Assembly (NCBI GenBank): GCA_964013405.1
Contig: CAXGWI010000030.1
Location: 1 to 28,501 of the forward strand
Source: an uncultured Myxococcales bacterium
GTDB taxonomy: Bacteria > Myxococcota > UBA4151
Direction: 5' to 3'
Length of the DNA stretch: 28,501 nt
Each line of letters opens with the position of its first letter. Position 1 is the stretch's first letter. Position numbers and translations under genes: made by a program. Of this stretch, positions 86 to 25,619 are shown piece by piece. A model generated the notes under the pieces. The model saw only the letters and a program-made list of their open reading frames with translations. It had not been told where the DNA came from and did not search any database.

Positions 86-1174
86 GTGGAGATCCACAGA
101 TTCCGTGGTGAGCCCCGGGATGTGGGGCGAGCGCACGGTCAGCGCTTTCAGCAGCCGATACGCGAGCTCGCCGCGTTGCGGGGCCGTCTGGCCATGGACC
201 GCATGGGCCTGGAAAGCCGGACAGAGCTCGTGCTCCTTGCGAACCAGCATGTTGATGTCCTCGCGCGAGCAGACCGGGATCTCTACCTTGAGTTCATCGG
301 ACTGTGCGAGGGCTCCGGGGTCAGCCCGGCCGACATGGTCATCCTGAACAACTACACCGATCTTCGGGATTTGACTCGCGAAGGCTTGTTTCCCGATGGG
401 GATGCCGGCTGCTCTGCGATCTTCCTGCCAGGGGATCCTCCAGTTCTGGGTCAGACATGGGACATGCACGCCTCGGCCCAGAGCTACGTAGAGGTCATGG
501 AGTTCGCCGTTGATTCGGCCCCCCGTTGCCTTGTGTTTTCGCTGACGGGCTGTTTCGGCATGGCCGGCGTCAACGAGGACGGCGTGGCGGTCACGATCAA
601 CAACCTCAATACCCTCGGTGCTCGCCCCGGCGTGCTTTGGCCGGCCCTGGTCCGTATGATGTTGCGGGCCTCCACCGCGGGGGAAGCAGTGGAGATCCTT
701 CGGCAGGTGGGCGTGGGGAGCGGGCATCATTATCAAGTGGCCGATCGACACAGTTTCTACGGGGTGGAAGCTCTGCCCCAGCAACAGGAAACCATCGCCC
801 GCTGGACCGCCTTTGGCGACGAGCCCATGACCTTGACCACGCCGGCCGGCGCGTTTCACACCAACCATTGCCTCGCTCCCACGAATGCGGAGACGGAGCG
901 TATTCCGAGCGTCAGCACCACCCATCGACGCTGGCGAGCGCTGGAAGCGCGTTTCCGCAGTGAGGTTGATCCCCGTCCCATCTCCCTGTGGCAACTGCTG
1001 GGCGATCGGCAGATCAGCATGCCAGCGGACCCGAATGAACCCCACAAGAGTGCGACCTGTGGCGGATTGGTGGTCGACTGGTCCGGTGAGCTACCGGAAC
1101 TTTGGGTCTGTCGGGGGCCGATGACCCATGCAGATGAGGTCCGGGCTCGGTTCTCGGAGCCTGGCTCGGCTTAA
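86..1174 (+). CDS. Peptidase C45 family / acyl-CoA:6-aminopenicillanate acyltransferase-like Ntn-hydrolase
   Basis: Family pattern: N-terminal G-x-P-x-x-x-G-x-x-HG, autoprocessing site G|CSAI about 108 aa in, then GQTWD, GVNEDGVAVTINNL, HTNH and S-x-x-R. GTG start. Confidence 0.85.
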   Translation: MEIHRFRGEPRDVGRAHGQRFQQPIRELAALRGRLAMDRMGLESRTELVLLANQHVDVLARADRDLYLEFIGLCEGSGVSPADMVILNNYTDLRDLTREGLFPDGDAGCSAIFLPGDPPVLGQTWDMHASAQSYVEVMEFAVDSAPRCLVFSLTGCFGMAGVNEDGVAVTINNLNTLGARPGVLWPALVRMMLRASTAGEAVEILRQVGVGSGHHYQVADRHSFYGVEALPQQQETIARWTAFGDEPMTLTTPAGAFHTNHCLAPTNAETERIPSVSTTHRRWRALEARFRSEVDPRPISLWQLLGDRQISMPADPNEPHKSATCGGLVVDWSGELPELWVCRGPMTHADEVRARFSEPGSA

Positions 1175-4100
1175 GACAGTCGCCGCTGCAATAGGTCGAG
1201 CCCCCGGGCCAGTTCTTCGCTTGTCACATTGAGGGCCGGCACGATGGAGAGACCCGTGCGGCGTTGTTTGACGACCAATCCGGCCGCAGCCAACTCCTCG
1301 GTGAACTCTTGGGGGGCGTCGCAGGGGACGAAAGCCTGCAGACCGCAGGACGTCGCACCGGGCAGGCCCGCCATGGCCTCGGCGAGCTGATCGCTGCGCT
1401 GCTGGAGGTCTTCCCGCAAGCGATAGGCCCCCCGAAGGTGGTGATTACACCGGATCATACTCAGTTCATCACCATCCCAAGTACTGATGAGTTGCAGTGG
1501 TTTTTCGACCCAGGCCTCGTCGGCGCAAAAGACCAGGCCAAGCTGGCCTCCGGTGTACCACCAGACCTGGCTGGGCTGGAGCGGGGTGGCATCGCTAAGG
1601 AAGCAGTGCTGCGCCGAGCCGCGAAAGCCACCGGTGCTGGTCTCGACAACGCAAACCTTGAGGCCGGCCTGGCGTCGGGACTCGAGCCCTTCGAGGTAAG
1701 CGTCGCTAAGTTGGAGGCCGCTTTCCTCGCCAAAGATTTCGCAGACGAGGGCCAGGACTTTGCCTTCGTGGGCCTGGAGCGCTGTATCGAGCGCCTCTAA
1801 AGCCGCGGCGGTGCCCACCGCGGCTGGATGGGGAAGGCTGGGCCAATTAAAGTAACCCTCGCGCCCCCAACTGAGACTCCGGGCCGCAGCGGTGGTGTGA
1901 CCCACGTAGGTGCCTTCGAGACTGAAGACCACCTGGCCTTCCCGGTGATTGTACTTGAGGGCGCGTAAGCCCTTGTCGACCATCTCGTCTCGGCCGCTGG
2001 TGTAGAGAACGTGGTCACAGCCGCGGGGGCGGAGGGCCTGGAGCGTTTCGGCGAAGCGAATGGTATCTGGGGTGCTGAAGTTACACAGACTGAGTTTATT
2101 CGAGATGGCACCGCCGAGACTGCCCCGGTTGGCTGCTGCGACCAACGTGGGCGGGCGCGGACCCAGGGGGCGCTGCAGCCCATGGGCTAGATCGATGCCA
2201 TCGAAATCGCTGGTTTCTGGGATCTCGATCGCGCCGGGACGAAGGGGGATCCGGTAGTAGTCACTTTGGCCCTCCGGTTCGCCATATTGGCCATCCAGTC
2301 TTTGGACGAGGTGGGCGCCTACGCTCCGGTTGAGGGGCGCCATTTCCCGGGTCCCTCCCACTCGGTTGCGTCCGACCACCCAATCGAAACCCGCCTGATA
2401 GGCCGCATCGAGTTGGGCTGATTTGAGAACTCTTCCAAGGCCTTGCCCCCGGAAGCCCGCGCCCGCGAGCATCTCTAGGGAGTAGAAGCTCGTGCCTTGG
2501 CCCCAAGTCGGATCGCTGTTGCAGCCGTCGACGCCTGGAAAGCCCTCAAGCGCTGCGCCCATGGAGAAGGCAGCGAGTTCGCCGCCGGGCGCGAGGATGA
2601 TGTGACCGATGAATCCCGGCAATTCAGCGAAGCCTGTCAGTCCGGCTGGTGTTTCCCGCCGGGCTGGCTCGTAAGCTTCGGCTTCGAGAACCATGACCTG
2701 GTCCATAAGCTCGTGAAGTCTTGGCAGGCTGAGTTCCTCAAGGCGGAAGCCGCCGGGGAGACCGCTTCGGGGCGGACGCCATGTCCCCCGGGCTTGCCAG
2801 GGGCTCGGTGCTAAGGTCGCTACGGCTTCGGCGAAGGCCGCCGGGTCGTTGAAGCCACCGACGTCGTCGATCATCTGCTGAAGACTCTCACGCAGGGCGG
2901 TCATCAGATCGGTCCACTGGGCCTCGGTCATGGCTGCGTTGAGGCGAAAGCGGAGGGTGTTTTGCCCGGCGATGTAGGTGAGGTAGCCCCGCCAAAACCG
3001 CTCGCTAAGCATTCGGTTAATCACGGCCCCTGACGGCAGGTCGATGGCCCAAGCAAGACCTCTTCCGCGGACTCTTGTAATCAATCCAGCGGGAAGGCTT
3101 GATGCCAAATCATCGAGCCCTCTCGATGCAAACTCGGCAATAGCCTCCGTGGGTGTCGCTTCAAAGATCTCAAGGTGGGCGAGCCCACGACGGGCGCTTG
3201 CCGCCTGGACTTCCCCGGGTTCCGGATCAGGCCAACGGCTCAGCACCACACCCAATTGGGCCTTCTTCGCCAGGCTGACGAGATCCGGTGCGTCCGCTTC
3301 CCCGTTTTCATCTTCGAGGGCCAGCGCTGCGTGCCAGAACAACTCGCCAGAAAGGCCCATGCCCGTTTGGACTTCGTCGACGATGAGGGGCACATCATGG
3401 CGACGGCAGAGGGCCAGCAGGCCGCTCAGAAACCGGGAGCTCAGGTGATTGTCGCCGCCCTCGCCTTGCATCGCTTCGATCAGCACTGCGAAGACCGATT
3501 CTGAGGCGAGGGTCGCCTCGGCCTTGAGGAGGATCGCAACCTCCTCCTCGAAAAGGGCAGCAGCCGATGGATCGAGCGTGCCGATAAAATCCTGCCAAAG
3601 GGCGGGCTGACTCGAGGCAGTGATCGGCTTCGTTCGCCAGGCTTCGACCCAGCCTTCCGGCATGGGCGGGATGATCTCCGGCTCGATCTGGCGGGGGTAG
3701 GCCAGCCAGCAGGCTTCGAAGCCGGCCAGTTCAAAGGGTTCTCTTTTGACCGGATTCCAAGTGCCGTGGAGGGGGAGGAGGGTCCGGCCGTGGAAGCTGC
3801 CTTTGAAGGCCAGGAGTTTGTGCCCACCACGCCCTTGGCGGCGGGCGATGTGCAATGCTTTCTCATTCGCCTCGGCCCCCGAGTTTGCGAAGGCGACGTG
3901 GTCGAAATGACCATGGGCTCGAATCTTGAGGGCGTTGGCGAAATCCTCGAGAGCATCCACGGTCTCGTCGGTGGGGTCGGGATTGGCAATGGGCTCGTCG
4001 CCGAAGCGCCCCAAGGCCATGCTCTCGAGGACGGCCGGCGGGTTGAGCCCCCACGCATGGGTCGCGATCTGAGAAGATGCGTCGAAGAAGACCAGTGGTT

Positions 4101-4509
4101 CCTGGTCGATGGACGCGAGCAGGGGGCCCGAGGAGCGACCATGGTCGATGACCGCCGGTTTGCGCTCGTTCAGCGGCGAAAAAGCCATGTCCCCGTAGTA
4201 ACGTTGAAGCCACGCTTCTGAGCGCGGCATCGCCTTTGGGCTGTGGGGGCTCGTCACCGGGCGCAGTCGAAAAAGGCCCGGGCGCAGCTCGGCCAAGGCT
4301 TCGATTCGGCCCAGCAATCGGTCCAAATCCGCTGGGCTGGCCAACTCGGCTCGAGGGATCCGTGCGAGCCCTGCATTGTCCAGCAATCGCCCGGCCTCGG
4401 CCGATAGGCGATCCCACTGTAGAAGGAGGTCACCGCCTTGGGTTTCCACCAGTAGACCGTAGGCCTGACAGGCCTCGGCCAATTCCTGCTCAAGGATCAA
4501 CGAGTCCAT
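1171..4509 (-). CDS. Fusion protein (1112 aa): class-III PLP aminotransferase (lysine 6-aminotransferase/GABA-AT-like) + GNAT acetyltransferase + degenerate second aminotransferase domain
   Basis: Aminotransferase motifs FANSGAEANEKAL, FKGSFHGRT, EAMQGEGGD, DEVQTG (3361-3378) and DLVSLAKKAQ (PLP Lys at 3265-3267). GNAT motif A is FRGQGLG (~2434-2454). A C-terminal aminotransferase-like repeat follows. Start moved from 4803 to ATG 4509 because AGGAG lies 7 nt upstream and this removes the overlap with the divergent gene. Confidence 0.85.
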   Translation of the reverse strand: MDSLILEQELAEACQAYGLLVETQGGDLLLQWDRLSAEAGRLLDNAGLARIPRAELASPADLDRLLGRIEALAELRPGLFRLRPVTSPHSPKAMPRSEAWLQRYYGDMAFSPLNERKPAVIDHGRSSGPLLASIDQEPLVFFDASSQIATHAWGLNPPAVLESMALGRFGDEPIANPDPTDETVDALEDFANALKIRAHGHFDHVAFANSGAEANEKALHIARRQGRGGHKLLAFKGSFHGRTLLPLHGTWNPVKREPFELAGFEACWLAYPRQIEPEIIPPMPEGWVEAWRTKPITASSQPALWQDFIGTLDPSAAALFEEEVAILLKAEATLASESVFAVLIEAMQGEGGDNHLSSRFLSGLLALCRRHDVPLIVDEVQTGMGLSGELFWHAALALEDENGEADAPDLVSLAKKAQLGVVLSRWPDPEPGEVQAASARRGLAHLEIFEATPTEAIAEFASRGLDDLASSLPAGLITRVRGRGLAWAIDLPSGAVINRMLSERFWRGYLTYIAGQNTLRFRLNAAMTEAQWTDLMTALRESLQQMIDDVGGFNDPAAFAEAVATLAPSPWQARGTWRPPRSGLPGGFRLEELSLPRLHELMDQVMVLEAEAYEPARRETPAGLTGFAELPGFIGHIILAPGGELAAFSMGAALEGFPGVDGCNSDPTWGQGTSFYSLEMLAGAGFRGQGLGRVLKSAQLDAAYQAGFDWVVGRNRVGGTREMAPLNRSVGAHLVQRLDGQYGEPEGQSDYYRIPLRPGAIEIPETSDFDGIDLAHGLQRPLGPRPPTLVAAANRGSLGGAISNKLSLCNFSTPDTIRFAETLQALRPRGCDHVLYTSGRDEMVDKGLRALKYNHREGQVVFSLEGTYVGHTTAAARSLSWGREGYFNWPSLPHPAAVGTAAALEALDTALQAHEGKVLALVCEIFGEESGLQLSDAYLEGLESRRQAGLKVCVVETSTGGFRGSAQHCFLSDATPLQPSQVWWYTGGQLGLVFCADEAWVEKPLQLISTWDGDELSMIRCNHHLRGAYRLREDLQQRSDQLAEAMAGLPGATSCGLQAFVPCDAPQEFTEELAAAGLVVKQRRTGLSIVPALNVTSEELARGLDLLQRRLS

Positions 4510-4620: not shown

Positions 4621-4639
4621 GGTCCGGCTGGAGTTCCCC

Positions 4640-6598
4640 ATGATACGTCGAGCCTTGCCACTTGTTTTGTTGTTGGGATGTGTGTCTGAACAGGTGGTCG
4701 TGCGCGAAAGGGCGGCCACCTGCGGCAACGGTGAAATCGAAGAGGGCGAGGCCTGTGATGACGGCAACAAGGAAAACACGGATCTGTGTACCAATGCCTG
4801 CACCTTTGGTCACTGCGGTGACGGGGTCACTCGGAGTGACGCACTTCCCGGCGACGAGCATTTTGAGATGTGCGACGACGGCAACGACGATGACAGCGAC
4901 GCCTGCCTAACCCATTGCATCCTCAGTCGTTGCGGTGATGGCTTTTTGCGGATGGACCTCGCCGAAGGTGAGGACGGCTATGAAGCCTGCGACGACGGCA
5001 ATGAAGATCATGGCGACGAATGTACCAACGATTGTCTCCCGGCTTTTTGCGGTGATGGGATCCGTCGCACCGATCGTCAGGAAGGCGAATCCGGGTTCGA
5101 AGCTTGCGATGATGGTAACGACTTCGACCTCGATGACTGCCTGAGCGATTGTCAGTTGCACCGCTGTGGTGATGGTGTCCTCGGGCCCGATGAAGGCTGC
5201 GACGACGGTAACGAGGACCCCACAGACGGTTGCATCAACTGCGTGCCCGCAGAGTGTGGTGACGGCGTCGTTCAGTTGGATGAGCTCTGCGATGACGGTA
5301 ATGTGGACGACACGGATGGTTGTCGGGCCAACTGTACCCCGGCCCGATGTGGCGACGGGGTGGTACGGGCCGATGATCTGGCCGAGGCCTGCGATGATGG
5401 CAATCAAGATGACCAGGATGGGTGCACGAGTGGCTGTGTCGTCGCCCGTTGTGGCGATGGGATTCAGCGGGTGGACCTTGAGCCCGGCGAGGAAGGCTTC
5501 GAGGCCTGCGACGACGGGAACGATGACTCGACCGATCACTGTCTAGAGTCCTGCGTCTTGGCCTTCTGTGGCGACGGCATCGTGCGGGCCGATGGCGAGG
5601 CAGAAGCCTGTGACGATGGCAACCAAGAGGACCTGGATGCCTGCACCAGCGCATGTGTTCCAGCTCGCTGTGGTGATGGCATTCAGCGAGCCGACCTGGA
5701 GCCTGGTGCTGAGGGCTTCGAGGAATGCGATGACGGTAACGATGATGCTTCCGATCACTGCTTGAACGGTTGTACCCTGGCCCGCTGCGGCGACGGTGAG
5801 ATCTGGGCGGGACGGGAGGAATGTGATGATGGTAATCAGATCAATGTGGATGACTGTACCAATGCTTGTCGCCTCGAGCGCTGCGGCGATGGTCAACTCC
5901 GGGAAGGCATCGAAGTCTGCGATGATGGCAACGCCCAGGACGATGACGCTTGCACCAATGAATGCCTGCCAGCTCGCTGCGGTGACGGCATTCTCCGCCT
6001 CGATCTTGCCGAGGGTGAAGCGGGGTTTGAGATTTGCGATGATGGCAACCGGTCTAACAACGACGACTGCTTGAACAACTGCCAAGAGGCGGTGTGTGGT
6101 GACGGTGTGATCCGACAGGATTTAGAGGCCGGCGAGTTTGGTTTTGAGGCCTGTGACGACGGGAACGGGTCGAACGAGGATGAATGTCTGGTGACCTGCC
6201 AGCCGGCCCGCTGCGGTGATGGTTTTGTGCGCGCGGGAATCGAACAGTGCGATGAGGGGGCCAACAACGGCAACGGGAATTGCCGGGCCGATTGCACCCT
6301 CAACTGGCAGCCGCCCGCGGTCGGGCAGCAGGGCTGTGACGGGCGTCTGGAAGGTGATTGTTGGCGGGTGTGTCGAGCCGATGCCAACAGTGCGTGGCTG
6401 GCGGCAAACAGTCGGGGGACGTACAACGCCCATCAAGCCTGCCAGTCCGTCGGCTATGCCCGGGCCAGTTCCAAAGGCGGGACCTGTGGCACGGTCTGTG
6501 GTTATTGTGGCAACGTGGGCAGGGAACATTACGACGGGGCCGGCGGGGACTTAAACCGCTTTCGCTACACCGTGCACTGGCGTTGCGAGCGTAATTAG
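4640..6598 (+). CDS. Lipoprotein (652 aa) with 15 Myxococcus-type cysteine-rich repeats (DUF4215-like) and a ~95-aa Cys-rich C-terminal tip domain
   Basis: Signal peptide and lipobox MIRRALPLVLLLG|C, then 15 CG[DN]G..E.CD[DE]G[NA]....C...C units. GGAG RBS 6 nt before ATG 4640, preferred over the track start at 4508. Confidence 0.9.
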   Translation: MIRRALPLVLLLGCVSEQVVVRERAATCGNGEIEEGEACDDGNKENTDLCTNACTFGHCGDGVTRSDALPGDEHFEMCDDGNDDDSDACLTHCILSRCGDGFLRMDLAEGEDGYEACDDGNEDHGDECTNDCLPAFCGDGIRRTDRQEGESGFEACDDGNDFDLDDCLSDCQLHRCGDGVLGPDEGCDDGNEDPTDGCINCVPAECGDGVVQLDELCDDGNVDDTDGCRANCTPARCGDGVVRADDLAEACDDGNQDDQDGCTSGCVVARCGDGIQRVDLEPGEEGFEACDDGNDDSTDHCLESCVLAFCGDGIVRADGEAEACDDGNQEDLDACTSACVPARCGDGIQRADLEPGAEGFEECDDGNDDASDHCLNGCTLARCGDGEIWAGREECDDGNQINVDDCTNACRLERCGDGQLREGIEVCDDGNAQDDDACTNECLPARCGDGILRLDLAEGEAGFEICDDGNRSNNDDCLNNCQEAVCGDGVIRQDLEAGEFGFEACDDGNGSNEDECLVTCQPARCGDGFVRAGIEQCDEGANNGNGNCRADCTLNWQPPAVGQQGCDGRLEGDCWRVCRADANSAWLAANSRGTYNAHQACQSVGYARASSKGGTCGTVCGYCGNVGREHYDGAGGDLNRFRYTVHWRCERN

Positions 6599-7218: not shown

Positions 7219-9228
7219 ATGGATCAACAGGGGCGTTTGGAGTTGATCGAGGCGGAAGCGGACGAGGGCGCCACTCCTGTTGGCGACGGGTCCGAGACCA
7301 GTCCGGCCCCTGTAGATTCCACCGACGCCGACTTGGGCGAGCGCGCAAACGACAGCCAGCCACCGGTCGCCGCAAAGCCGGCCCAGAGCCCGCCGAAGCG
7401 TCGGGCAAGTGCTCGGAGCATGGGGGGAAAGCATCGAGCGATCTCGATCAGCGAGTTCTTTACCAAGAACCGCCACCTTCTGGGCTTTGACAATCCAGCG
7501 AAAGCGCTTCTGACCACCGTCAGAGAGGCCGTCGACAACGCCCTCGACGCTTGTGAAGAGGCGGGCATCCTGCCGGATCTCACCGTCGAGATCGACCCGG
7601 TCGAAGGTTACGATGATCGCTACACGGTCCTCGTTCGTGACAATGGTCCGGGTATTATCAAAGCCCAGATCGGCAAGGTCTTCGGCAAGCTCCTCTATGG
7701 CAGCAAGTTTCACCGCTTGAAGCAAAGTCGCGGTCAGCAGGGGATCGGTATCTCCGCGGCCGGGATGTACGGCCAAATCACGACTGGACGCCCGGTGACT
7801 GTGATCAGTCGAACCGGAAAGCGCAGGCCAACCCATCGCATCGTGTTGCAAATCGATACACGCCGAAACGAACCCAAATACCTTAGTGAGGAACAACTGG
7901 AGGATTGGGATTGGGATCACGGCACTGAAATTATCCTGACCATCGCCGCAACCTTCAAGGGCGGTCGGCACAGTGTGGATGAGTACATGCGCCAGACGGC
8001 CATGAGTAATCCCCATGCCCATATCATTTACCGGAACCCGCGGGGGGTGGATTTGGTCTACGAGCGCCAAGTTCACGAGTTGCCCAAAGAGCCGGAAGAG
8101 ATCCAGCCCCATCCCCACGGTATTGAGCTCGGCATGCTCATGCGCATGCTGCGGGAGACAAAGCGCCGCAATCTCACGGACTTTTTGAAAGAGGAATTCT
8201 GTCGGGTCAGTCAGCGCAATGCGGAAGAGATCATCACAGAAACCGCCAAACGGGTTCCCGATCGGCAGCGCAACCAGATGCTACGGCGCAACCCCAAAGC
8301 GATGGAGCGCCATGAGGTCGAGGCCCTGTTCCAAGTCCTGGGCGAAACCCGGTTGCATAGCCCCCCGACCAACTGTCTGAGCCCCATTGGACACGAAGAC
8401 ATTCGCACGGGGCTTTTCGCCCTCTTCGACCCCGGCGACTACGATCCCAGTGAGTTCTTTGTCACCGGTGAAACTCGGCGGCCGGCTGTCTATCGGGGCA
8501 ATCCCTTCCAGGTCGAGGTGGGCATCGTCTACGGCAAGGGGCTGGAAGGGGACACCAGCGCAGAGGTCTATCGCTTTGCGAACCGGGTGCCTCTGCAGTA
8601 CCAGGCCGGAGCCTGTGCGATCACGAAAGCCGTGCAGTCCCTCAACTGGCGCCAATACAACCTGACCCAGCCTCGAGGCAGCTTTCCCGTCGCCCCCATG
8701 GTGGTCAGTGTTCACATCTCCAGTGCTTGGGTGCCCTACACCTCCGAGTCCAAGGAGGCCATCGCTCACTACCCAGAAATCCTGAGTGAACTACGTCTGG
8801 CTTTGCAGGTTTGTGCTCGCCGTTTGCAGCGTCATATCCGGCGGCAGCGTAAGCAGCGGGATGCGGAAAAGCGAAAGCAGTACCTCGAAAAGTACCTCGA
8901 TCCCATCAGTGAAGCCCTGCAAGAAATCCTCGGCTTCGATGAACAAGAAAAAGCCCGGGTTTCGGTGCAACTCACCGAGCTCATCGACCCCCAGGAGGTC
9001 GAGGAGGAATCGGAGGAGGAACTCGAGGTCGACGAAAACGTGGGTCGGCCAAGAGGGCGCACAGAAGTGGTGGCGGACCCGATTCCGGAGACAACTCACC
9101 TGGCTGAGGATGGGACCCCGGTAGGGACCGAGGAGGCTGTAGCGGAAGCAGAGACCGTTCCCGAGGCAGTGAAGCAGGAAGCGCAGGCGACGCTGGGGCT
9201 CGACCTGCCCGAAGGAGGTGAGGACTGA
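7219..9228 (+). CDS. top6B: DNA topoisomerase VI subunit B
   Basis: ISISEFF.KN...LGF; GHKL motifs EAVDNALDA, DNGPG, GSKFH..QSRGQQGIGISA and GTEI; transducer motifs RFANRVPL and SESKEAIA. Low-complexity N-terminal extension and acidic C-terminal tail. Confidence 0.97.
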   Translation: MDQQGRLELIEAEADEGATPVGDGSETSPAPVDSTDADLGERANDSQPPVAAKPAQSPPKRRASARSMGGKHRAISISEFFTKNRHLLGFDNPAKALLTTVREAVDNALDACEEAGILPDLTVEIDPVEGYDDRYTVLVRDNGPGIIKAQIGKVFGKLLYGSKFHRLKQSRGQQGIGISAAGMYGQITTGRPVTVISRTGKRRPTHRIVLQIDTRRNEPKYLSEEQLEDWDWDHGTEIILTIAATFKGGRHSVDEYMRQTAMSNPHAHIIYRNPRGVDLVYERQVHELPKEPEEIQPHPHGIELGMLMRMLRETKRRNLTDFLKEEFCRVSQRNAEEIITETAKRVPDRQRNQMLRRNPKAMERHEVEALFQVLGETRLHSPPTNCLSPIGHEDIRTGLFALFDPGDYDPSEFFVTGETRRPAVYRGNPFQVEVGIVYGKGLEGDTSAEVYRFANRVPLQYQAGACAITKAVQSLNWRQYNLTQPRGSFPVAPMVVSVHISSAWVPYTSESKEAIAHYPEILSELRLALQVCARRLQRHIRRQRKQRDAEKRKQYLEKYLDPISEALQEILGFDEQEKARVSVQLTELIDPQEVEEESEEELEVDENVGRPRGRTEVVADPIPETTHLAEDGTPVGTEEAVAEAETVPEAVKQEAQATLGLDLPEGGED

Positions 9229-10358
9229 TGGCTCGCAAAAAGACAATCGATCCGGAAAAAGCCGACGAAATCACCATCGATACGCTGGCAAAGCTGGCGA
9301 GGGGGATTCATCAGTCCATCAGTCGGGGCCGGTACCCAGAGCTCATCAGCCCCGTGCGCTCTCTTCAGAACGTGAAGGAGTTTCGTAAGCGGGTTGGCTA
9401 CCTTGAGATCGGTGAGAAGATCAAAACTCGGACCCTGTCGGTCAACACGGTCAAAACTTTTGCCCAGACCTTAAAGATGATGAGTCTCTCCAAGGACCTG
9501 GTTGAGACCAACGACTTCGCAACGAAGAGGGATGCTTATTACCAGTCCAAGAACTGGGGGCCGGCGGCTTTCAAGGATCAGCCTGAGTCGGACACGGTGA
9601 TGGATGATATCGAGGCGATGGTGAGTCGTTATGGTTTGGGGCGCGAGCATCTTCGCTACATTCCGGACGAGCACGGTGGCAGTGTCGCCGGTGCCCTCAA
9701 GGTCCACGATAAGGACCTTGAGACCGGTGAGCCCGAGGTGATCGATTGTACTCGCTTTGGTAGCGGCGCTTACTCCATCCCCAGTTGGGTGGAGCACCTA
9801 GACTTTGAGACGGACGCTGACTTTGTCCTGTGCATCGAAACCGCTGGTATGTTTCAGCGGCTTCAGAGCCACAAGTTCTGGCGCAAATACAACTGCATTC
9901 TTGTCAGCCTCGGCGGTGTGCCGAGTCGAGCCTGCCGCCGGTTCGTTCGGCGTCTGAGTGAACAGGCGAAGATCCCCGTTTACGCCTTTGTCGATTGCGA
10001 CCCCTATGGTGTCGCCAATATCTATCGGTCCCTGAAGGTTGGTAGCGGGAATGCGGCCCATGTGAACCATCTCTTCTGCGTCCCCCAGGCCCGTTTCCTC
10101 GGCGTGACACCCAAGGACATCGTCGATTACAAACTGCCGACCCATCCGCTCAAGGATCGGGATATTAAGCGGGCCAATGATGCCCTAGCCAACGACCCCT
10201 TCTTCCAGGCCCATCCCAAGTGGCAAAATGAGATTCAGCGATTGCTCGATATGGGCGTTCGCGCTGAGCAGCAGGCTCTTGCTCGTTGGGGCTTGAACTA
10301 CGTCATCGACGAATACCTCCCGGCGAAGCTGAAAAAGACCGGTAGTTTTCTCCCCTAG
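9228..10358 (+). CDS. top6A: DNA topoisomerase VI subunit A (Spo11-like)
   Basis: Catalytic-Tyr motif TKRDAYY, FxDQPESD, Toprim Glu motif IETAGMF, DxD motif DCDPYG, and AEQQAL. Translationally coupled to top6B through a TGATG overlap at 9226-9230. Confidence 0.97.
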   Translation: MARKKTIDPEKADEITIDTLAKLARGIHQSISRGRYPELISPVRSLQNVKEFRKRVGYLEIGEKIKTRTLSVNTVKTFAQTLKMMSLSKDLVETNDFATKRDAYYQSKNWGPAAFKDQPESDTVMDDIEAMVSRYGLGREHLRYIPDEHGGSVAGALKVHDKDLETGEPEVIDCTRFGSGAYSIPSWVEHLDFETDADFVLCIETAGMFQRLQSHKFWRKYNCILVSLGGVPSRACRRFVRRLSEQAKIPVYAFVDCDPYGVANIYRSLKVGSGNAAHVNHLFCVPQARFLGVTPKDIVDYKLPTHPLKDRDIKRANDALANDPFFQAHPKWQNEIQRLLDMGVRAEQQALARWGLNYVIDEYLPAKLKKTGSFLP

Positions 10359-10508: not shown

Positions 10509-13500
10509 ATGAAGAACCGACTCACAATCGCTCTAACCACAGTTCTGTTGGCAGCCTGTCCTTCCGATCCGGTCGACGACCCGCCACCGGTTATCGGTGG
10601 CGGTGGTGGTGGTGGTGCCGGGCCAGTCGAGCCTGTCGTGGAGCCTTGCCCGGAAGCCCAGGTGCGGGATCCCGTTGCGCAGACCTGTGTCGGCGCTCGG
10701 GGGGAAGGAGTGGTCCCGGCAGAGGGCTACTTCCGGACGGAGCATCCCTGGATCGCCCAGGCCCGTGGGAGCGCCGAATCAATTCGCTATCTCTTAGCCG
10801 ATGCGGCGGCCGGCGGTGACGGCCGGCTAGAAGCCCCGTTTCGAGATTGGGGTGCGGCCCTTGCTGGCTTGCAAGACGGTGATGATGTGACCTTTGTCAT
10901 CGGTCGAGGTGTCGTCGAGGGCGCGGCCTCCTTCAGCGGACTTGGGCGGGTCACCATCGTTGGTAACGCAGCCTCAGTCACCACGCTAAGCACCGAGGAT
11001 GAGCCTGTGATCGAAGCCGTCGGCACCGCTTGGTTGCGGGTATGGGGCGCCCGGCTCACTCGGACCGGCGAAGCCGTCGGTCCTGCTCTGCATCTCGAAG
11101 GTACAGGCCGAGTCCATCTTGCCCAGGTGCGTGTGGCAGCCACGGCCGGTGATGGTGTTCTTGCGACGGAGGCGGGCGCGGATGGCTTTATCCTCGGTTA
11201 CAGTACCTTTGAGAGCATCGCTGGGTCCGGGCTCAACGGTCAGGGCGCCCTGGGCTGGTGGACCGTCGATGAAACGGTGTTCCAAGGCCCCCTCGGTGCC
11301 GACGGGATCTCCCTCGTTGATTTCGGTGGTAGCCAGTTCCGAGTGTTTTCCTCTGAGTTTGCCGGCAACATTGGCGGTGACGGGATCTCATTGGTCGACT
11401 TCGGTGGTAGCCAGTTCCGGGTTTCTGAAAGCCGCTTCGCAGGGCCCATCGGTGGCGACGGCGTGTCTCTGGTGGACTTTGGCGGCAGCCAGTTCCGGGC
11501 GAGCGAGAATGTGTTCCAAGGGCCCCTTGGCGGAGATGGGATCTCCCTCGTCGACTTTGGCGGCAGCCAGTTCCGAAGCCATGACAATGTCTTTCAGGAG
11601 ATGGAGGGAAGTGCCCTTCACAGCGCCGGCGGTCAGGGGACGTTCTTGATGCAGAATGACCGAATGGAAGGCCCAATCGGTCGTGATGGTGTGACCATTA
11701 CCGGCTTCCAGGGTGAGGCGGTCACCATGAAGCAACTCCATCTCGGCGTCGTGAACCGCGTCGGGATTTCCGGCTCAGAATCGGCGGGCTGGTGGACGAT
11801 TGATGGGGCCAACCTTCAAGGCCCCATCGGCTTCGATGGAATCAGCCTTCGTGGGGTGGGTGAGGACAACGCTCGGGTCAAGATCTCCAGTGTCGAGGCT
11901 GAAGGCATCGGTCGAGTCGGTATGCGTTTGACCGAAGGTTTGGGCTGGTGGACCGTGGATGAAACCGTGTTTCGCGGCACGGGCGGAACCGGTGTGATGG
12001 CCCAGGGCTTTACGGCGAACAGCAGCCTTGAAATGAGCGGCGTAAGCGTGACTGGAGCCCATGGCGTAGGCATGGTCTTCGATGCCAATTCGGCAGCTAT
12101 CGAGGTGGCAGACGCGGAGATCTCTGAAACCGTCGGCCAAGAACAAGGTGGGGCCAACAGGCCCGGCCCCGTGCTTGGTTACGGTCTGCTGGTGATGGAC
12201 AGCGCCCACCTCGCTGTCTTGCGGAGTCAATTCATTCGCAATGCCGGCAGCGGTCTTCTCATCGACCTCCGGGGCTGGGGTGCCCGGCGTGATCGACCCG
12301 ACCTCAGTGGTGAAGCAACCATCCGCTTGGACACGGTCGAGATCGAAAAAGAGCCAGGCGCAGCCGAGAACCAACCGGAAGCGCAAGCGCAGAATGTTCC
12401 GGAGGGCGTGAGTATCGCCGGTATGGGCGATCGACCGCCGGGTCCTGAGGCACCGGCCCAAGACCTGCCGCAGCCGATGGAGGCAGAAGAAGCCGGTTGT
12501 GGCGATGGCGTCGTCGATGCGGCCATTGAGGAATGTGACGATGGCAATCAAGATGATGGCGATGGCTGCACCCGATTGTGCAAGGCCAATATTTGTGGCG
12601 ATGGCATCGTCAACCGGGGCGTTGAGGACTGTGACGATGGGAATGACATCAATCACGGCGATGGCTGTTCCAATGTCTGTGTCGCACCCGACCGAATCCC
12701 TTATGATGGGGGCGTCTTCAATATGGGGAATGTGGGCGTCGATGCCCGACCGTTCAACGTGACCGTGCAACCCTTCAGCCTCTCCCGGACGGAGGTCACT
12801 TGTGACGAATACAGTGACTATCTTCTTGAGACAGGAGCGGCTTTCGATGTGATGAAGGACGGTTCCGTCGAAGATAACCTTGAAGCAAACGTGCCTTCTT
12901 GGAATATGCTTTACGGTGGTGATTGGCAGGGCTCATGTGCGCTGCCGGACGGCTGGCCTCATGCGAGATACAGTGCCAACGCACCGGCTGAAGACGGGTA
13001 CATCGTACCGCTCGGGACACCGGCAGCAAGCCAAGAATTGGATTTGCCCGGGGCCGATACATTGCCGATGGACACGGGCGGCAATGGCGCCACTCGGCCT
13101 TTCGAGTATTATTACTTAGTGCGGCGATTCTATACGGGGCGAGTGGTTTCTGGGGCTTATCTCGATATCTACCATCCCAACGCCGCGATCGCTGTCTACG
13201 TGGGCGGTCAATTGGTCCACACCTCGGGTATGGCGAGCCCGGCCTGTGACAGTGCGCTGACTCAAGTCAGCCCAGAGGGGGCGACTCGGGTGCTGCTCAA
13301 ACAAGCTGACCTCAATAATTTGAATCACTACTATCGCTACCACCAATACGTCGCTGTGATGCTGAGGCCCCTGAATCAGGAGGTGGACGAGCTCGGTTTC
13401 GCCATGCGCTTTCGTGCCTGGGGTGCGAGCGTTGGTGAGAACCCCTTACCGTGGATGGATGGGGCCCATCACCGGTTGAGCGCTGCCGGCCAGGCGTTGT

Positions 13501-14048
13501 GTGGTGCGGGCGACTACCCCATGGCGCTGGACTGGGACAAAGCCCGGGAATTCTGTCGCTGGTATGGCGGCGACCTGCCCACTGCAGCCCAATGGGAGTA
13601 CGCTGCCCGTAATGAGGGCGAGCAGACCGCGTACCCGTGGGGTGACCGACCGACGATCGATCGGTCGCCAGCTGGGGACAGTCAAGCCTGTCAGTACGCC
13701 AACAGCAGTGGGCCGGGCGGGCGTAATGCCTGCGAGCACGTGGGCCTAAGGACGCCGGTTTGCGCCTATCCTCTTGGTCATACCGAGCAGGGAGCCTGCG
13801 ATATGATCGGCAATCTCGCCGAGTGGACCCTTGATGGTGAAGGGGCCATTGCTGCCCATGGTGAAGGTGGTGATCGGCCCCAGCGCACCCCCCATTTCTG
13901 GGACCCCGAGGCTACCTTTACGGTTCGGGGGGGATCGATGGTCAAGACCCGGTCTGCTCATACGGCGACCAGCGAGTTCCGTCGACGTGATGGCGACAAT
14001 GATGATGCCGCCTACGACGTGGGTTTCCGCTGTGCATGGCCCCGTTGA
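10509..14048 (+). CDS. Large lipoprotein (1179 aa): parallel beta-helix repeats + 2 Cys-rich repeats + FGE-sulfatase (SUMF1/CLec-fold) domain interrupted by a jelly-roll insert; paralogue A
   Basis: Lipobox LLAA|C and beta-helix cap motif GDGRLEAPF. Contains 4x DG[IV]SLVDFGGSQF and 2x CGDG/CDDGN. FGE motifs: FNMG, RTEVT, W..A..FC.W.GGDLPT.AQWEYAAR, YPWG, G.CDMIGNL.EW, RGGS, GFRC. Confidence 0.88.
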   Translation: MKNRLTIALTTVLLAACPSDPVDDPPPVIGGGGGGGAGPVEPVVEPCPEAQVRDPVAQTCVGARGEGVVPAEGYFRTEHPWIAQARGSAESIRYLLADAAAGGDGRLEAPFRDWGAALAGLQDGDDVTFVIGRGVVEGAASFSGLGRVTIVGNAASVTTLSTEDEPVIEAVGTAWLRVWGARLTRTGEAVGPALHLEGTGRVHLAQVRVAATAGDGVLATEAGADGFILGYSTFESIAGSGLNGQGALGWWTVDETVFQGPLGADGISLVDFGGSQFRVFSSEFAGNIGGDGISLVDFGGSQFRVSESRFAGPIGGDGVSLVDFGGSQFRASENVFQGPLGGDGISLVDFGGSQFRSHDNVFQEMEGSALHSAGGQGTFLMQNDRMEGPIGRDGVTITGFQGEAVTMKQLHLGVVNRVGISGSESAGWWTIDGANLQGPIGFDGISLRGVGEDNARVKISSVEAEGIGRVGMRLTEGLGWWTVDETVFRGTGGTGVMAQGFTANSSLEMSGVSVTGAHGVGMVFDANSAAIEVADAEISETVGQEQGGANRPGPVLGYGLLVMDSAHLAVLRSQFIRNAGSGLLIDLRGWGARRDRPDLSGEATIRLDTVEIEKEPGAAENQPEAQAQNVPEGVSIAGMGDRPPGPEAPAQDLPQPMEAEEAGCGDGVVDAAIEECDDGNQDDGDGCTRLCKANICGDGIVNRGVEDCDDGNDINHGDGCSNVCVAPDRIPYDGGVFNMGNVGVDARPFNVTVQPFSLSRTEVTCDEYSDYLLETGAAFDVMKDGSVEDNLEANVPSWNMLYGGDWQGSCALPDGWPHARYSANAPAEDGYIVPLGTPAASQELDLPGADTLPMDTGGNGATRPFEYYYLVRRFYTGRVVSGAYLDIYHPNAAIAVYVGGQLVHTSGMASPACDSALTQVSPEGATRVLLKQADLNNLNHYYRYHQYVAVMLRPLNQEVDELGFAMRFRAWGASVGENPLPWMDGAHHRLSAAGQALCGAGDYPMALDWDKAREFCRWYGGDLPTAAQWEYAARNEGEQTAYPWGDRPTIDRSPAGDSQACQYANSSGPGGRNACEHVGLRTPVCAYPLGHTEQGACDMIGNLAEWTLDGEGAIAAHGEGGDRPQRTPHFWDPEATFTVRGGSMVKTRSAHTATSEFRRRDGDNDDAAYDVGFRCAWPR
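11301..11576 (+). repeat. Four in-frame coding repeats (78-nt period) encoding DG[IV]SLVDFGGSQFR
   Basis: Units start at 11301, 11379, 11457 and 11535. Differences within the core are almost all synonymous. Confidence 0.95.
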
Positions 14049-14090
14049 TTCCGGCTTTACGGGCCGTTTGAACCCTAGGGAGTATTGGGG

Positions 14091-17000
14091 GTGATCATTC
14101 GAAGGATAGCTGTTCCGTGGGTCTGCATCCTGCTCATCGCAGGTTGCTCGGGCGAATCTGCGGACCTGGCCCTTGGGGGCGAGTCCGGTCGAGCTCCTGG
14201 TGAGTTACCTGGAGGCACCAATGGCATAGATGTTGGTGACCTGCCTGCGGACCCCTTTGATGAGCCCTGCGTCGAGCCTCTGGTGCATGATCCGATCGCT
14301 GGCTACTGCGTGCCCGCTCGCGGTGAAGGGCTCAGCCCCCAGGAGGGGCCTTTTCGAACCCGCCATCGGTGGTTGCAGGAAGCGCAGTCAGCGCAGGAGG
14401 TGATCCGATACGTCGTCCCCGGTCTTCCTCCGGGTGGGACGGGCGCGCCAGAATCACCTCTAGGTAGTTGGGCCGGAGCGACCGATAACCTTCCTGCCGG
14501 CGCTGATGTCACATTCCTTGTGGGCCGAGGGCGGGTCGACGGGACCCTCGAGCTCTCGGGACTGGGCCGCGTGTCAGTGATTGGAAACGCGGCTGCGGTC
14601 ACAGCCCTGCGAGCCGATAATGGGCCCGTTTTGGCTGCGGAGGAAGTGGGCGCGTTGCGACTCTGGGGCCTGGCGATTGAGCGAGTGGGGGATGATCCGG
14701 GGCCTGCGTTGGAGCTTGCGACGACGGAAGCATTTCTGGCGGGCCAGATTCGGCTCGTCTCCAGCAGTGGTGATGGCATCGAGTTCCGCGGGGGCGGTGA
14801 CGGTGGCCTTCAGATCAGCCACAGCCATTTCTTGGCGATCGCTGGCGATGGTCTGCGAGGGGTGGAAGCACTCGGCGGTTGGACCATCGATGAGACCGTC
14901 TTCCAGGGGCCTTTCGGTGGTGATGGGATCTCTTTGGTCGACTTCGGTGGTAGCCAGTTTCGCTTCTCAAACAGCGAGTTGAACAACATCGGTGGTGATG
15001 GGATTTCGTTTGTCGATTTCGGCGGCAGTCAGTTCCTCGTGGACAATGGCACGTTGAATTCAGTGTCTGGTGACGGCATCTCCTTGGTCGATTTCGGTGG
15101 CAGCCAGTTTCGGGTGATGAACAGTCAGTTCGAAGGCCCCATCGGCGGCGATGGGATTTCGTTGGTCGATTTCGGCGGCAGCCAATTTCGCAGTCATCAA
15201 AACCGTTTTGCCAGCATCGATGGCAGCGGGATCTCGAGCCGCGGCGGGTCCGGCACATTCACGATTGAGGAAAGCCAGATGGATGGCCCGATCGGTCGCG
15301 ATGGAATCACGATCGTCGGCTTCTCCGGTGCGCGGGCCCATATTGGATCGATCGAGATGAGAACCATTGGACGGGTCGGTATTTCAGTGCGGGATGCGCT
15401 GGGCTGGTGGACTGTCGATGGTGCCAATTTTCACGGCCCAATCGGCTTTGATGGCCTGCAGTTCATCGGGGTTGGAGAGACCGGCAAACGGGTGAAGCTC
15501 ACCAATCTTGGTGGTGATGGGGTCGGCCGTGTCGGGATGCGGTTACTCGATGGCCTGGGCTGGTGGACCGTAGACGGTGCGAACTTTCGCAACACCGGTC
15601 AAATGGCGGTTCAGATCTCGGGCTTCTCGCCAGAAGCGGCCTTCGACCTTCATCGGCTGTCTGTTGAGGGGGCGAGCGGAATCGGTGTCATGATCGACAG
15701 TACAGCGGCGTCGATCGAGTTGAGCGACAGTGACATCGACGAGACGGCAACCCGGCCCCAGGGGGGGGCTCAAGCACCGGGCCCGGCATTGGGCTACGGG
15801 CTTCTCGCCAAGGACGTGGGCCAACTGGCTGTGCGTCGCAGTCAATTTCGCGGCAATGGAGGCACAGCCATCGTTGTGGACTGTCGTGGTTGGGGCGCCC
15901 GGCGGCGGCGGGGCGATCTCCAGGGCAGTGTTCGCTTGGAACTGGACGATCTCGTGGTCGAAGACAGTGAGGGGACACCGGTGGGTGGCTCCGCGATGAG
16001 AACACAGAATATGCCCGCTGGAACCGAGGTCTGGGTCGACGGAACCCTTCGCCGGGAGCAGTACGAGGACGCGGCCCAAGAAGAGATGCCTGAGCTCGAG
16101 ATGGGGCTGCCGGGCTGTGGCGATGGTGTCGTCGACGAGATGATCGAGGAATGTGATGATGGTAACGACAGCGACAACGACGCTTGCACGGCGAACTGTT
16201 TTCTCAACGTCTGCGGTGATGGATTACATCACGTAGGCTTCGAGGAATGTGATGATGGCAATGAAGTGCATCACGGCGACGGTTGCAACAATGACTGTGA
16301 AGCGGGGGACCGGGTTGTTATTCCTGGCGGCTCTTTCGTCTATGGAACGATATCCAATGCCTTCAATGGGCTGCCGGAAACCCAGGTGGATGGCTTTTTC
16401 ATGAACCGCCATGAGGTGACCTGCGAAGAATTTGGTGCGTACTGGTCCGCCTCCGGTTCGACGCGTGTGGTGCTTTCAGACGGTAACAATGGAGCTGGCG
16501 ACCATTCTTGGTATTTGGATCCGCATGAGGGTGTGGTTCCGACGGGCTGGCCCTTTGCGACATTCGATGCTGCCAGTCCGCCGGAGGATGCCGCGTCGAT
16601 GCTTTCGACGCCTGCGCAAGAAGCAGTCTTCCCGCAGAATAACGTTGTGGCTGGCGAGGGTGAACGGTGGGAAAAATATTATCTTTTCCGTCGCTTTCGA
16701 CACAACCGGCGCATTAGTGGTGGTTTTATCGATGTCCACCACCCTGGGGCTGCTATCCGGGTGTATTTAGCGGGGCAATTGATTCACCAAGCCGGTTGGC
16801 CCGAGGCCGGCGATAACTCGCCTTTGGTCCCCGAATCGACCAATGGCATGAGCCGAATTTTACTGAAGGATGAAGCCATTGAGCACCACAATGACCATTG
16901 GGGTGCATGGAAGTACATCGCCATCGAACTGAGGCCCTTCCCTCCGGGCGACGGCCATGATCAACTCGCTTTTGCGCTGACTTATAAGGTTTGGAATCAG

Positions 17001-17684
17001 ACCTTCCAAACGCCTCGCAAGCCTTGGTTTAACCAACGTGGGGAGCACATCAGCACAGGGCACGGACAGTTGCTCTGTGGTGATCCCCGGTGGCCTGTTG
17101 CGATGGATTGGCACAAGGCGCGAGATTATTGTCGCTGGCACGGTGGGGATCTCCCCACGGAGGCGCAGTGGGAATATGCCGCTCGGAACCTGGGTCAAAA
17201 CATCAAATATCCGTGGGGCAACTTACCTCGGATCACGGCAAGCTATAGTGGTGGGCAAGTGGCTTGTGAATACGCCCATACAAGTGCTGACACTGCCCCT
17301 CAGAACTGCCCAGACTCCGGCATCAAACTTGAGGTCTGCTCGCGGCCATTGGGCAACACCGAGCAAGGCCTGTGTGATATGATCGGAAACATGTGGGAAT
17401 GGACTCTGGATGGCTACAGCGAAGGACATCGGGATGGCATCGATAATGATCGAGATGGTCATGTCGATGAGCGTAATGAACTCCTTGTGCCCAGCGCATC
17501 GGGTTTGCCACTGACGAGCCGCCCTTCATTCTGGTCCGGCAGCAGTTTGTATGTTGCCCGAGGCAGTTCCTCTGCCAATACGATTGGGTCGTACACGACC
17601 GGCCGATTGGGCCGGACGGCAACTTGGTTTCAGGGCCAAGCCAGTGTCGACTTCGGTTTCCGATGCGCGTGGCCTATCGAGTAG
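14091..17684 (+). CDS. Large lipoprotein (~1197 aa) with the same architecture as 10509-14048; paralogue B
   Basis: Lipobox LIAG|C. Colinear with paralogue A throughout (ARGEG..P.EG.FRT.H.W, DFGGSQF x4, RGWGARR, CGDG x2, FGE motifs ending GFRCAWP). GTG 14091 is preferred over TTG 14085 because GGGAG lies 8 nt upstream. Confidence 0.88.
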   Translation: MIIRRIAVPWVCILLIAGCSGESADLALGGESGRAPGELPGGTNGIDVGDLPADPFDEPCVEPLVHDPIAGYCVPARGEGLSPQEGPFRTRHRWLQEAQSAQEVIRYVVPGLPPGGTGAPESPLGSWAGATDNLPAGADVTFLVGRGRVDGTLELSGLGRVSVIGNAAAVTALRADNGPVLAAEEVGALRLWGLAIERVGDDPGPALELATTEAFLAGQIRLVSSSGDGIEFRGGGDGGLQISHSHFLAIAGDGLRGVEALGGWTIDETVFQGPFGGDGISLVDFGGSQFRFSNSELNNIGGDGISFVDFGGSQFLVDNGTLNSVSGDGISLVDFGGSQFRVMNSQFEGPIGGDGISLVDFGGSQFRSHQNRFASIDGSGISSRGGSGTFTIEESQMDGPIGRDGITIVGFSGARAHIGSIEMRTIGRVGISVRDALGWWTVDGANFHGPIGFDGLQFIGVGETGKRVKLTNLGGDGVGRVGMRLLDGLGWWTVDGANFRNTGQMAVQISGFSPEAAFDLHRLSVEGASGIGVMIDSTAASIELSDSDIDETATRPQGGAQAPGPALGYGLLAKDVGQLAVRRSQFRGNGGTAIVVDCRGWGARRRRGDLQGSVRLELDDLVVEDSEGTPVGGSAMRTQNMPAGTEVWVDGTLRREQYEDAAQEEMPELEMGLPGCGDGVVDEMIEECDDGNDSDNDACTANCFLNVCGDGLHHVGFEECDDGNEVHHGDGCNNDCEAGDRVVIPGGSFVYGTISNAFNGLPETQVDGFFMNRHEVTCEEFGAYWSASGSTRVVLSDGNNGAGDHSWYLDPHEGVVPTGWPFATFDAASPPEDAASMLSTPAQEAVFPQNNVVAGEGERWEKYYLFRRFRHNRRISGGFIDVHHPGAAIRVYLAGQLIHQAGWPEAGDNSPLVPESTNGMSRILLKDEAIEHHNDHWGAWKYIAIELRPFPPGDGHDQLAFALTYKVWNQTFQTPRKPWFNQRGEHISTGHGQLLCGDPRWPVAMDWHKARDYCRWHGGDLPTEAQWEYAARNLGQNIKYPWGNLPRITASYSGGQVACEYAHTSADTAPQNCPDSGIKLEVCSRPLGNTEQGLCDMIGNMWEWTLDGYSEGHRDGIDNDRDGHVDERNELLVPSASGLPLTSRPSFWSGSSLYVARGSSSANTIGSYTTGRLGRTATWFQGQASVDFGFRCAWPIE
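14922..15191 (+). repeat. Four in-frame coding repeats (75/75/78-nt period) encoding DGIS[LF]VDFGGSQF
   Basis: Units start at 14922, 14997, 15072 and 15150. Confidence 0.95.
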
Positions 17685-19346: not shown

Positions 19347-19598
19347 TTACTGGTGTCTTAGGACCCGTTGCATCTCGTCTTTGAGGCTGCCGTTTTCTGC
19401 GGCTTCCTGGTCGACCTTTTGCTGTACAGACAGACTGACGTGGTCGATCACCCGTCGCGCCCGGGCTCGATCATTGGCCAATCGCCGGGCTCGACTATCG
19501 TAACGCTGCTCTGTTGCAGCCTCGCGCTGAGCACGCAATTCGGCGATGCGAATGTAGGGGGCCGCTGAAGGGCCGTAGCTGACGCCTGGAAATGCCAT
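19347..19598 (-). CDS. Small hypothetical protein (83 aa, charged, helical)
   Basis: Fills the gap between the GT4 and GH13 genes. ATG at 19598 is preceded by GGAG and a sigma54-like motif. Confidence 0.55.
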   Translation of the reverse strand: MAFPGVSYGPSAAPYIRIAELRAQREAATEQRYDSRARRLANDRARARRVIDHVSLSVQQKVDQEAAENGSLKDEMQRVLRHQ

Positions 19599-19607
19599 CG
19601 GGACTCC

Positions 19608-19623
19608 AGCTACAAGAATGCCA
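19608..19623 (-). promoter_or_regulatory. Candidate sigma54 promoter (TGGCATTCTTGTAGCT) for the 83-aa ORF
   Basis: TGGCA-T with exact GG-N10-GC spacing. The -12 box is TAGCT rather than TTGCW. Confidence 0.4.
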
Positions 19624-19663
19624 CAGATTGGCAGCAACAGCCAAAGGCTGGCAAACCCCCATC

Positions 19664-25575: not shown

Positions 25576-25619
25576 CTTGCCGGTTCTCCTACGGGCCCTC
25601 TGCCTGCGTGGGCCAGGGA

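Follow-up and report, generated by a model that had tools for sequence, protein, structure and literature searches.

A class-III aminotransferase fused to a GNAT domain and a degenerate second copy is predicted to form a single-site pseudo-dimer

What use does a bacterium have for a protein chain that joins an apparently intact class-III aminotransferase to a second aminotransferase that has lost its catalytic motifs, with a GNAT acyltransferase domain between them? This question is raised by a gene in contig CAXGWI010000030.1 (GenBank assembly GCA_964013405.1) of an uncultured Myxococcales bacterium, of which positions 1 to 28,501 of the forward strand, the 28,501-nucleotide window, were analysed. 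An earlier note, made from the letters of the window and their open reading frames (ORFs), had described the gene as a fusion of an aminotransferase, a GNAT domain and a dead aminotransferase, in which the dead copy supplies the partner subunit within the same chain. On balance, we favour the reading that the protein is a pseudo-dimer with one active site that probably takes part in the catabolism of an N-acylated diamino acid, most likely beta-lysine, by a logic resembling that of the arginine succinyltransferase (AST) pathway.

The gene is a 1,112-aa ORF on the minus strand that runs from an ATG at 4509 to a stop codon at 1173-1171 with no internal stop codons. We refer to its intact half as copy 1 and to its degenerate half as copy 2 (Table 1). 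Scoring of 7,998 candidates gave 383 homologues of 611-1,946 aa, one of which is 80% identical across the full length; the best 120 of the 383 were aligned, and residue counts out of 120 refer to these. The uninterrupted ORF, the family and fold matches described below and the 383 homologues confirm the triple fusion. Mis-assembly, which the earlier note had named as a possible refutation, is excluded because independent full-length homologues exist. Public sequencing contigs matching the gene were all short, and none spanned it in full. A survey of the architecture across genomes, which the same note had called for, found the fusion in 27 of 301 genomes of the phylum, from seven families, and the loci that bear taxon names fall in Myxococcota and Bdellovibrionota. 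One locus (L006) comes from an unpublished genome, G311; it forms one row in our alignments A2 and A3 and enters the count of 39 loci and the 13/16 AstA count given below. We conclude that the fusion is real, conserved and apparently uncharacterised. No description of it or of its pathway was found among the titles and starts of abstracts returned from open-access literature, which is no proof of absence.

Copy 1 matched the Pfam family Aminotran_3 (PF00202) with 142 bits against a cut-off of 30.5, and Foldseek placed it in fold type I. The best NCBIfam model was that of lysine 6-aminotransferase (LAT; TIGR03251, PDB 2cin), with 132.7 bits, below the whole-protein cut-off of 520.8. The ArgD/AstC-type models were also below their cut-offs on the fusion (TIGR03246, 79 bits against 610; TIGR00707, 128 against 410), and EctB models scored much lower than LAT. 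We found that G211, F239, H240, R242, E345, E350, D378, Q381, K415 and R522 are invariant in 120/120 homologues. Copy 1 thereby carries the lysine that holds pyridoxal 5'-phosphate (PLP; K415), the aspartate facing PLP N1 (D378), the glutamine (Q381), the phosphate-binding glycine (G211), the substrate arginine (R242) and the Glu/Arg switch (E350 and R522). The Pfam match and these residues bear out the earlier description of copy 1 as an intact class-III aminotransferase. The affinity to lysine aminotransferases, which had been read from a KKxQ motif, also stands: LAT is the best family and fold match, and a tree places the copies with true LATs.

Copy 2 has kept the fold and lost the catalytic residues. 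A copy-2 profile built from 21 sequences matched 164 solved sequences, and the best 60 of these 164 all belong to the fold-type-I aminotransferase family; the match to LAT (E value 1e-18) covers profile positions 13-348, nearly the full length. The copy-2 model matches LAT 2cin with a template-modelling (TM) score of 0.84, its class-III fold matches ranging over 0.74-0.85, so that the C-terminal third does adopt the aminotransferase fold. The four decayed motifs that the earlier note had pointed out lie at residues 836-848, 864-872, 953-960 and 979-991. No lysine occurs at residues 984-990 in any of the 120 homologues, so the PLP lysine is lost, and so is the PLP aspartate: position 955, which would face PLP N1, is mostly V, I, S, L or F, with Asp not among the commonest residues. 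R840 and D841 occupy the phosphate-binding Gly/Ala position. Conservation is nonetheless at the level of copy 1 (mean 0.55 against 0.56, with 49 of 343 columns conserved at 90% or more), which argues that copy 2 is not drifting.

How could a half without PLP lysine be kept under such constraint? The active sites of fold-type-I enzymes sit at subunit interfaces, according to the accessible part of a published account (PMC9309667). For LAT, the available text of a review (PMC9780415) assigns G128, A129, F167, H168, R170, E238, E243, D271, Q274, K300 and R422 to one subunit and N328, S329 and T330 to the other. In our alignments, the same-subunit catalytic residues all fall in copy 1 and the partner-subunit Ser/Thr loop falls in copy 2, so that the losses are complementary as far as sequence can tell. 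Copy 1 has no Ser/Thr loop of its own; it is 13-14 residues shorter than LAT there and has no Thr at the position. The distance from the PLP-lysine column to the column of R441 is 27 residues in copy 1 (20/20), 40-41 in true LATs (6/6) and 35 in copy 2 (20/20), and in HMMER and BLAST alignments the 13-residue gap of copy 1 falls exactly on the partner-donated loop. The equivalent of LAT N328, residue 1008, is I, V or A in 120/120 homologues and thus hydrophobic.

Structure prediction points the same way. AlphaFold modelled the whole chain with a mean predicted local distance difference test (pLDDT) of 95 and a predicted TM score (pTM) of 0.94, and the latter implies a confident relative placement of the domains. 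When copy 2 was folded alone, residues 804-810, which include the invariant N810, and 1006-1010 fell below pLDDT 50; in the corresponding blocks of the whole-chain model they score 91 and 85-94, respectively. It is likely that copies 1 and 2 pack as a pseudo-dimer, one rigid chain with one PLP site, because copy 2 keeps the partner-subunit residues that copy 1 has lost. These results support the earlier proposal that the dead copy serves as partner subunit in cis; of the AlphaFold check suggested with it, the domain placement and the ordered loop were obtained, and the one-site packing is inferred. We built a quick tree from 15 of the 120 homologues for each copy, together with 40 outgroup enzymes and four omega-aminotransferases (omega-ATs). 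Copy 1 and copy 2 each formed a single clade, and a branch with support 100 set both clades on the side of the LATs. It did not resolve copies 1 and 2 as sisters, and it fits the duplication of a LAT-like gene.

Several points weigh against this architecture. MAFFT shifts the gap in copy 1 and pairs S424-W426 with the loop, with Arg in place of Thr in 17/20 sequences. The whole-chain and copy-2 models were computed at unequal alignment depths, 120 against 21, and dimer-like packing and the contact between T1010 and PLP are inferred from model scores, not coordinates. Copy 2 could accordingly be a mere scaffold or a regulatory relic, with copy 1 forming homodimers, and the loop could be swapped between two chains, since the packing of the copies is itself taken from the model. 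We regard this as improbable: the Thr is missing from copy 1 in either alignment and is kept in copy 2 in 120/120 homologues.

The region between the copies of the 1,112-aa protein gave no Pfam match itself. Of 12 homologues scanned, three score above the PF00583 cut-off, and a comparison with GNAT clusters in the ESM Atlas gave a feature score of 0.98. At least 90% conservation is seen in 27 of 168 GNAT columns, and the glycines of the acyl-CoA motif (G690 and G692) are kept in 118-119 of 120 homologues. Thus the GNAT domain proposed earlier is present, and it is retained in all complete fusions inspected. Matches to GNAT subfamilies are weak, with thialysine and diamine acetyltransferases among the best at E values of 0.006-0.2, below significance. 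That the domain would acylate a substrate is plausible. The N-terminal domain gave no match in an ESM Atlas search. In many homologues an AstD-type aldehyde dehydrogenase (ALDH) is fused upstream of it, and 52/120 homologues have an N-terminal extension of at least 380 aa, the size of an ALDH.

GNAT-less variants were suspected in frames of 1,417-1,469 aa and ruled out, the GNAT being kept in all of them, and a 376-aa frame in genome G104, considered as a stand-alone half, is truncated by the contig end. Among candidate stand-alone halves, the GNAT profile gave eight matches and the copy-2 profile 40 (E value 1e-30 or better), mostly fragments on short contigs. A 601-aa protein (P0131) on a 320-kb contig consists of GNAT and copy 2 only, which could reflect either a natural split into a heterodimer or a frameshift.

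Table 1. Positions of the fusion gene, its parts and the adjoining C45-family gene in the window
Feature	Residues	Position	Strand	Basis
Whole gene: N-terminal domain, LAT-like copy 1, GNAT, degenerate copy 2		1171..4509	-	ORF, homologues, AlphaFold
N-terminal domain of ~90 aa, weakly conserved		4240..4509	-	0/90 columns at 90% conservation
Copy 1, class-III aminotransferase of the LAT clade	~91-550	2860..4239	-	Pfam, NCBIfam, fold match
Codon of K415, PLP lysine, equivalent to LAT Lys300	415	3265..3267	-	Alignment; K in 120/120
GNAT acyltransferase domain	~586-758	2236..2754	-	Pfam matches of homologues, Atlas, conservation
Copy 2, class-III fold; PLP Lys, PLP Asp, phosphate-binding Gly and substrate Arg lost	~767-1112	1174..2211	-	Profile, model, alignment
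S1009, T1010 and W1011, aligned with LAT S329, T330 and W331	1009-1011	1477..1485	-	Invariant in 120/120; alignment to 2cin
C45-family N-terminal nucleophile (Ntn) amidohydrolase, nucleophile Cys109 kept, proposed deacylase		86..1174	+	Convergent with the fusion, stop codons overlapping

What does such an enzyme act on? At 39 other fusion loci, of which some are cut by contig ends, we counted the genes lying no more than 6 kb away, and we compared the 27 carrier genomes with 28 of the 274 non-carriers. A C45 gene lies near 25 of the 39 loci, an AstD-type ALDH gene near 24, a PRK06062-like omega-AT gene near 17 and a 3-oxoacid CoA-transferase gene near 15, commonly in the order ALDH, fusion, C45, omega-AT, CoA-transferase. 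C45 occurs in 26/27 carriers and 0/28 non-carriers, and the AstD-type dehydrogenase in 25/27 carriers. The best matches of the ALDHs are AstD, and ALDHs fused to the protein form one clade (support 98) with those encoded next to astA. In the genome that the window comes from, only C45 stands beside the fusion; astA adjoins an astD-type gene on contig C28 (L097:8870-11325), an arrangement that recurs in other carriers in which no ALDH is fused to the protein. The nearest solved relative of the omega-AT is taurine:2-oxoglutarate aminotransferase. A first omega-AT profile matched in 23/27 carriers and 4/28 non-carriers and mixed two sister clades; after a tree, 12/27 carriers have the operon clade and none of the four non-carrier matches falls in it. 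The sister clade adjoins a methylmalonate-semialdehyde dehydrogenase gene in four genomes (one typed by NCBIfam, the other three 60-63% identical to it), the same arrangement as is given for the beta-alanine transaminase of P. putida in the part of the report that was available (10.1101/2021.12.09.472016).

Some neighbours and genome features stand apart from this set. In four small genomes (L111, L113, L114 and L115) a gene for a ClpA/B-type ATPase directly follows the fusion instead of C45. Genome G108 (L144/L147) has two omega-AT copies with equal scores, each close to the beginning of a different contig, and one may be a duplicate created by assembly. A gene for a FAD-dependent oxidase of the DAO family, sarcosine-oxidase-like (24424-25575, minus strand), was considered as a partner and dropped, having no match near the fusion loci of relatives. 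BKACE was found in 2/5 carriers and is uninformative, and a search for AstE (PF04952) is uninformative because it found nothing in 5/5 carriers or 5/5 non-carriers.

Because a semialdehyde dehydrogenase, a deacylase and a CoA-transferase recur beside the fusion, we consider it likely that the route is catabolic and follows AST logic: acylate, transaminate, oxidise, deacylate. The GNAT would acylate the inner amine with a succinyl or acetyl group, and therefore the semialdehyde formed later could not cyclise. Copy 1 would transaminate the terminal amine with 2-oxoglutarate, the AstD-type dehydrogenase would oxidise the resulting N-acyl semialdehyde, and the C45 amidohydrolase would remove the acyl group. 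The beta/omega-aminotransferase of the operon would then yield a 3-oxo acid, to be activated by the 3-oxoacid CoA-transferase. That a beta-amino-acid transaminase adjoins a 3-oxoacid CoA-transferase suggests a beta-amino acid as product. Beta-lysine is our tentative choice of substrate, with N3-acyl-beta-lysine passing through 3-aminoadipate to 3-oxoadipate. It would suit a LAT-derived site because it has lysine's length from carboxylate to terminal amine, and it would suit AstD because, as a beta-homologue of ornithine, it has ornithine's spacing from N-acyl group to aldehyde. It is possible, if rather doubtful, that the whole course from lysine through beta-lysine, N3-succinyl-beta-lysine and 3-aminoadipate to 3-oxoadipate is an undescribed lysine catabolism of Myxococcota and Bdellovibrionota, with the split class-III homodimer at its core and a dehydrogenase shared with arginine/ornithine breakdown.

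A number of observations count against beta-lysine. An aminomutase (KamA) gene lies within 6 kb of 0/39 fusion loci, and an enrichment of high-scoring KamA in carriers, which we had considered, was rejected (15/27 against 19/28 non-carriers). In favour of beta-lysine, a KamA-family gene is present in 39/39 carriers searched (the 27 plus 12 of 16 others), in two copies in 33, although the two-copy count has no non-carrier control. Many KamA-family genes serve the modification of EF-P, and for this reason the presence of KamA, neither enriched nor clustered, is only a necessary condition for a beta-lysine substrate. The operon-clade omega-AT is found in fewer than half of the carriers, the source genome having a sister-clade copy elsewhere, and the best solved matches of the CoA-transferase are SCOT-type, usually acetoacetate enzymes. 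R242 is no proof of a substrate carboxylate, because its LAT equivalent, R170, also binds 2-oxoglutarate, as stated in the accessible text on LAT (PMC9780415). The carriers come from seven families, and we claim no statistical test because related genomes are not independent. Two single cases stand out: in G022 a KamA-family gene (L095:18507-19586) follows the fusion after ~6 kb, and in G314 another lies ~3 kb from astA.

The presence of AstA in 27/27 carriers, against 12/28 non-carriers, and in 13/16 further carrier genomes speaks for a different substrate, N2-succinylornithine. The same pseudo-dimer would then replace AstC in arginine/ornithine catabolism, which leads to glutamate, and C45 would replace AstE. 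The AstD orthologue, either fused to the protein or adjoining astA, fits this, and ArgD/AstC-family matches occur in 15/27 carriers against 27/28 non-carriers, leaving 12/27 carriers without one, seven of which have AstB. In G042, a closed genome, AstA and AstB are both present, and the only class-III enzymes are the fusion, the omega-AT and one gene in two frames (L151/L158), frameshifted or an assembly error. We nevertheless think this substrate unlikely. It leaves the GNAT, the omega-AT and the CoA-transferase unexplained; AstB is found in only 8/27 carriers (7/28 non-carriers) and was not found in the source genome, which is 94% complete; astA lies within 6 kb of 0/39 loci; and the ancestry of the fusion is LAT, not ArgD. 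The beta-lysine and ornithine readings are compatible, and the fusion may fill the AstC role for N2-succinylornithine as well. That LAT ancestry would suit N2-acyl-L-lysine, converted through 2-aminoadipate to 2-oxoadipate by the same pseudo-dimer. Lysine is abundant, and canonical LAT occurs in 0/27 carriers against 7/28 non-carriers. Such a course seems no more probable to us than the ornithine one, as the Asn of LAT at position 328 has been replaced throughout by hydrophobic residues, the omega-AT resembles beta-amino-acid enzymes and HglS was not found in five carriers. No glutaryl-CoA dehydrogenase was identified, two candidates from the source genome that were checked being of other types and the remaining candidates unchecked.

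Less probable still, in our view, is the catabolism of a diamine or omega-amino acid, in which the GNAT would mono-acylate a diamine (or N6 of beta-lysine) and the end product would be beta-alanine, 4-aminobutyrate (GABA) or 5-aminovalerate. The thialysine and diamine acetyltransferases among the best GNAT matches, the hydrophobic residue at pocket position 1008 and an omega-AT family suited to omega-amino acids are in its favour. Those GNAT matches are, however, below significance, the AstD-type dehydrogenase suggests an N-acyl amino-acid semialdehyde and none of the recurring neighbours examined was identified as a polyamine gene. The earlier note had drawn a parallel to ectoine synthesis, with EctB and EctA logic in one polypeptide, and an aminotransferase and a GNAT do share one chain here. 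This parallel is not supported, because the recurring partners, an AstD-type semialdehyde dehydrogenase, the C45 deacylase, a second aminotransferase and a CoA-transferase, are catabolic; EctB models score far below LAT, and ectoine synthase (EctC) was found in 0/5 carriers in a search that had no positive control. A biosynthetic fusion of this kind is very improbable.

The rest of the window holds genes of other kinds. Two cysteine/aspartate-rich repeat proteins are encoded at 4634-6598 (plus strand; DUF4215, 12 stretches) and 25487-28147 (plus), the second resembling the first by eye. Two adjacent ORFs at 7219-10358 (plus) presumably encode proteins resembling topoisomerase VI subunits B and A. 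Positions 10509-17684 (plus) encode two tandem paralogous proteins of ~1,190 aa which, by eye, have near-identical short internal repeats, cysteine-rich repeats and possibly a formylglycine-enzyme-like C terminus, and 19592-21961 (plus) likely encodes, again by eye, a lipoprotein of the alpha-amylase family.

The fusion is a clear natural example of two duplicated copies losing complementary parts, and the losses can be followed down to single residues. If the pseudo-dimer holds, single-site pseudo-dimers would extend from enzymes of the serine palmitoyltransferase (SPT) type to the class-III aminotransferases, which find use in biocatalysis. A single-chain scaffold with one site would allow either half of the pocket to change without the other. 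The set of five genes probably marks out a route of amino-acid catabolism that is so far uncharacterised, in Myxococcota and Bdellovibrionota and also in genomes of only ~2 Mb, and it would give a subfamily of C45 hydrolases a testable role.

A class-III precedent for a one-site pseudo-dimer was not found in the limited open-access literature covered, and the closest known systems each share a part of what is seen here. By family, sequence and fold, copy 1 matches LAT best and has all of its same-subunit catalytic residues, while the equivalents of LAT S329, T330 and W331 are found in copy 2. LAT, however, is a homodimer of ~445-aa subunits with two sites, whereas the fusion splits the halves of a site between two fused copies, scores far under the LAT cut-off and differs at pocket positions K117, Q147, R256, I1008 and D1012. 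In SPT1/SPT2, a fold-type-I pair with a presumed single site, one half lacks the PLP lysine and the other bears it, and the Coccolithovirus SPT is a single chain with the Lys-bearing half first, as given in the available portions of two papers (PMC6148460, PMC5371807). The fusion shares the lysine-less half, the lysine-bearing half and the single chain of the viral form. SPT differs in belonging to the alpha-oxoamine synthase (AOS) family and not to the class-III aminotransferases, in having no inserted GNAT and in catalysing another reaction. The P-protein of the glycine cleavage system likewise has two related fold-type-I halves, split or fused, with one PLP site; unlike the fusion, it is a decarboxylase of an unrelated subfamily. 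EctB and EctA also pair a class-III aminotransferase with a GNAT, but the partners of the fusion are catabolic. The AST pathway (AstA-E) acylates one amine, transaminates the other, oxidises and deacylates, and shares with the fusion the reaction logic proposed here, an AstD-type partner dehydrogenase and the co-occurrence of AstA. It differs in that the fusion transaminase is LAT-derived and not of the ArgD/AstC type, its GNAT does not resemble AstA, C45 takes the place of AstE as the proposed deacylase, and two extra genes lie downstream. The fusion is SPT-like in its predicted architecture and AST-like in its proposed logic, and it belongs neither to LAT or AstC nor to the canonical AST set.

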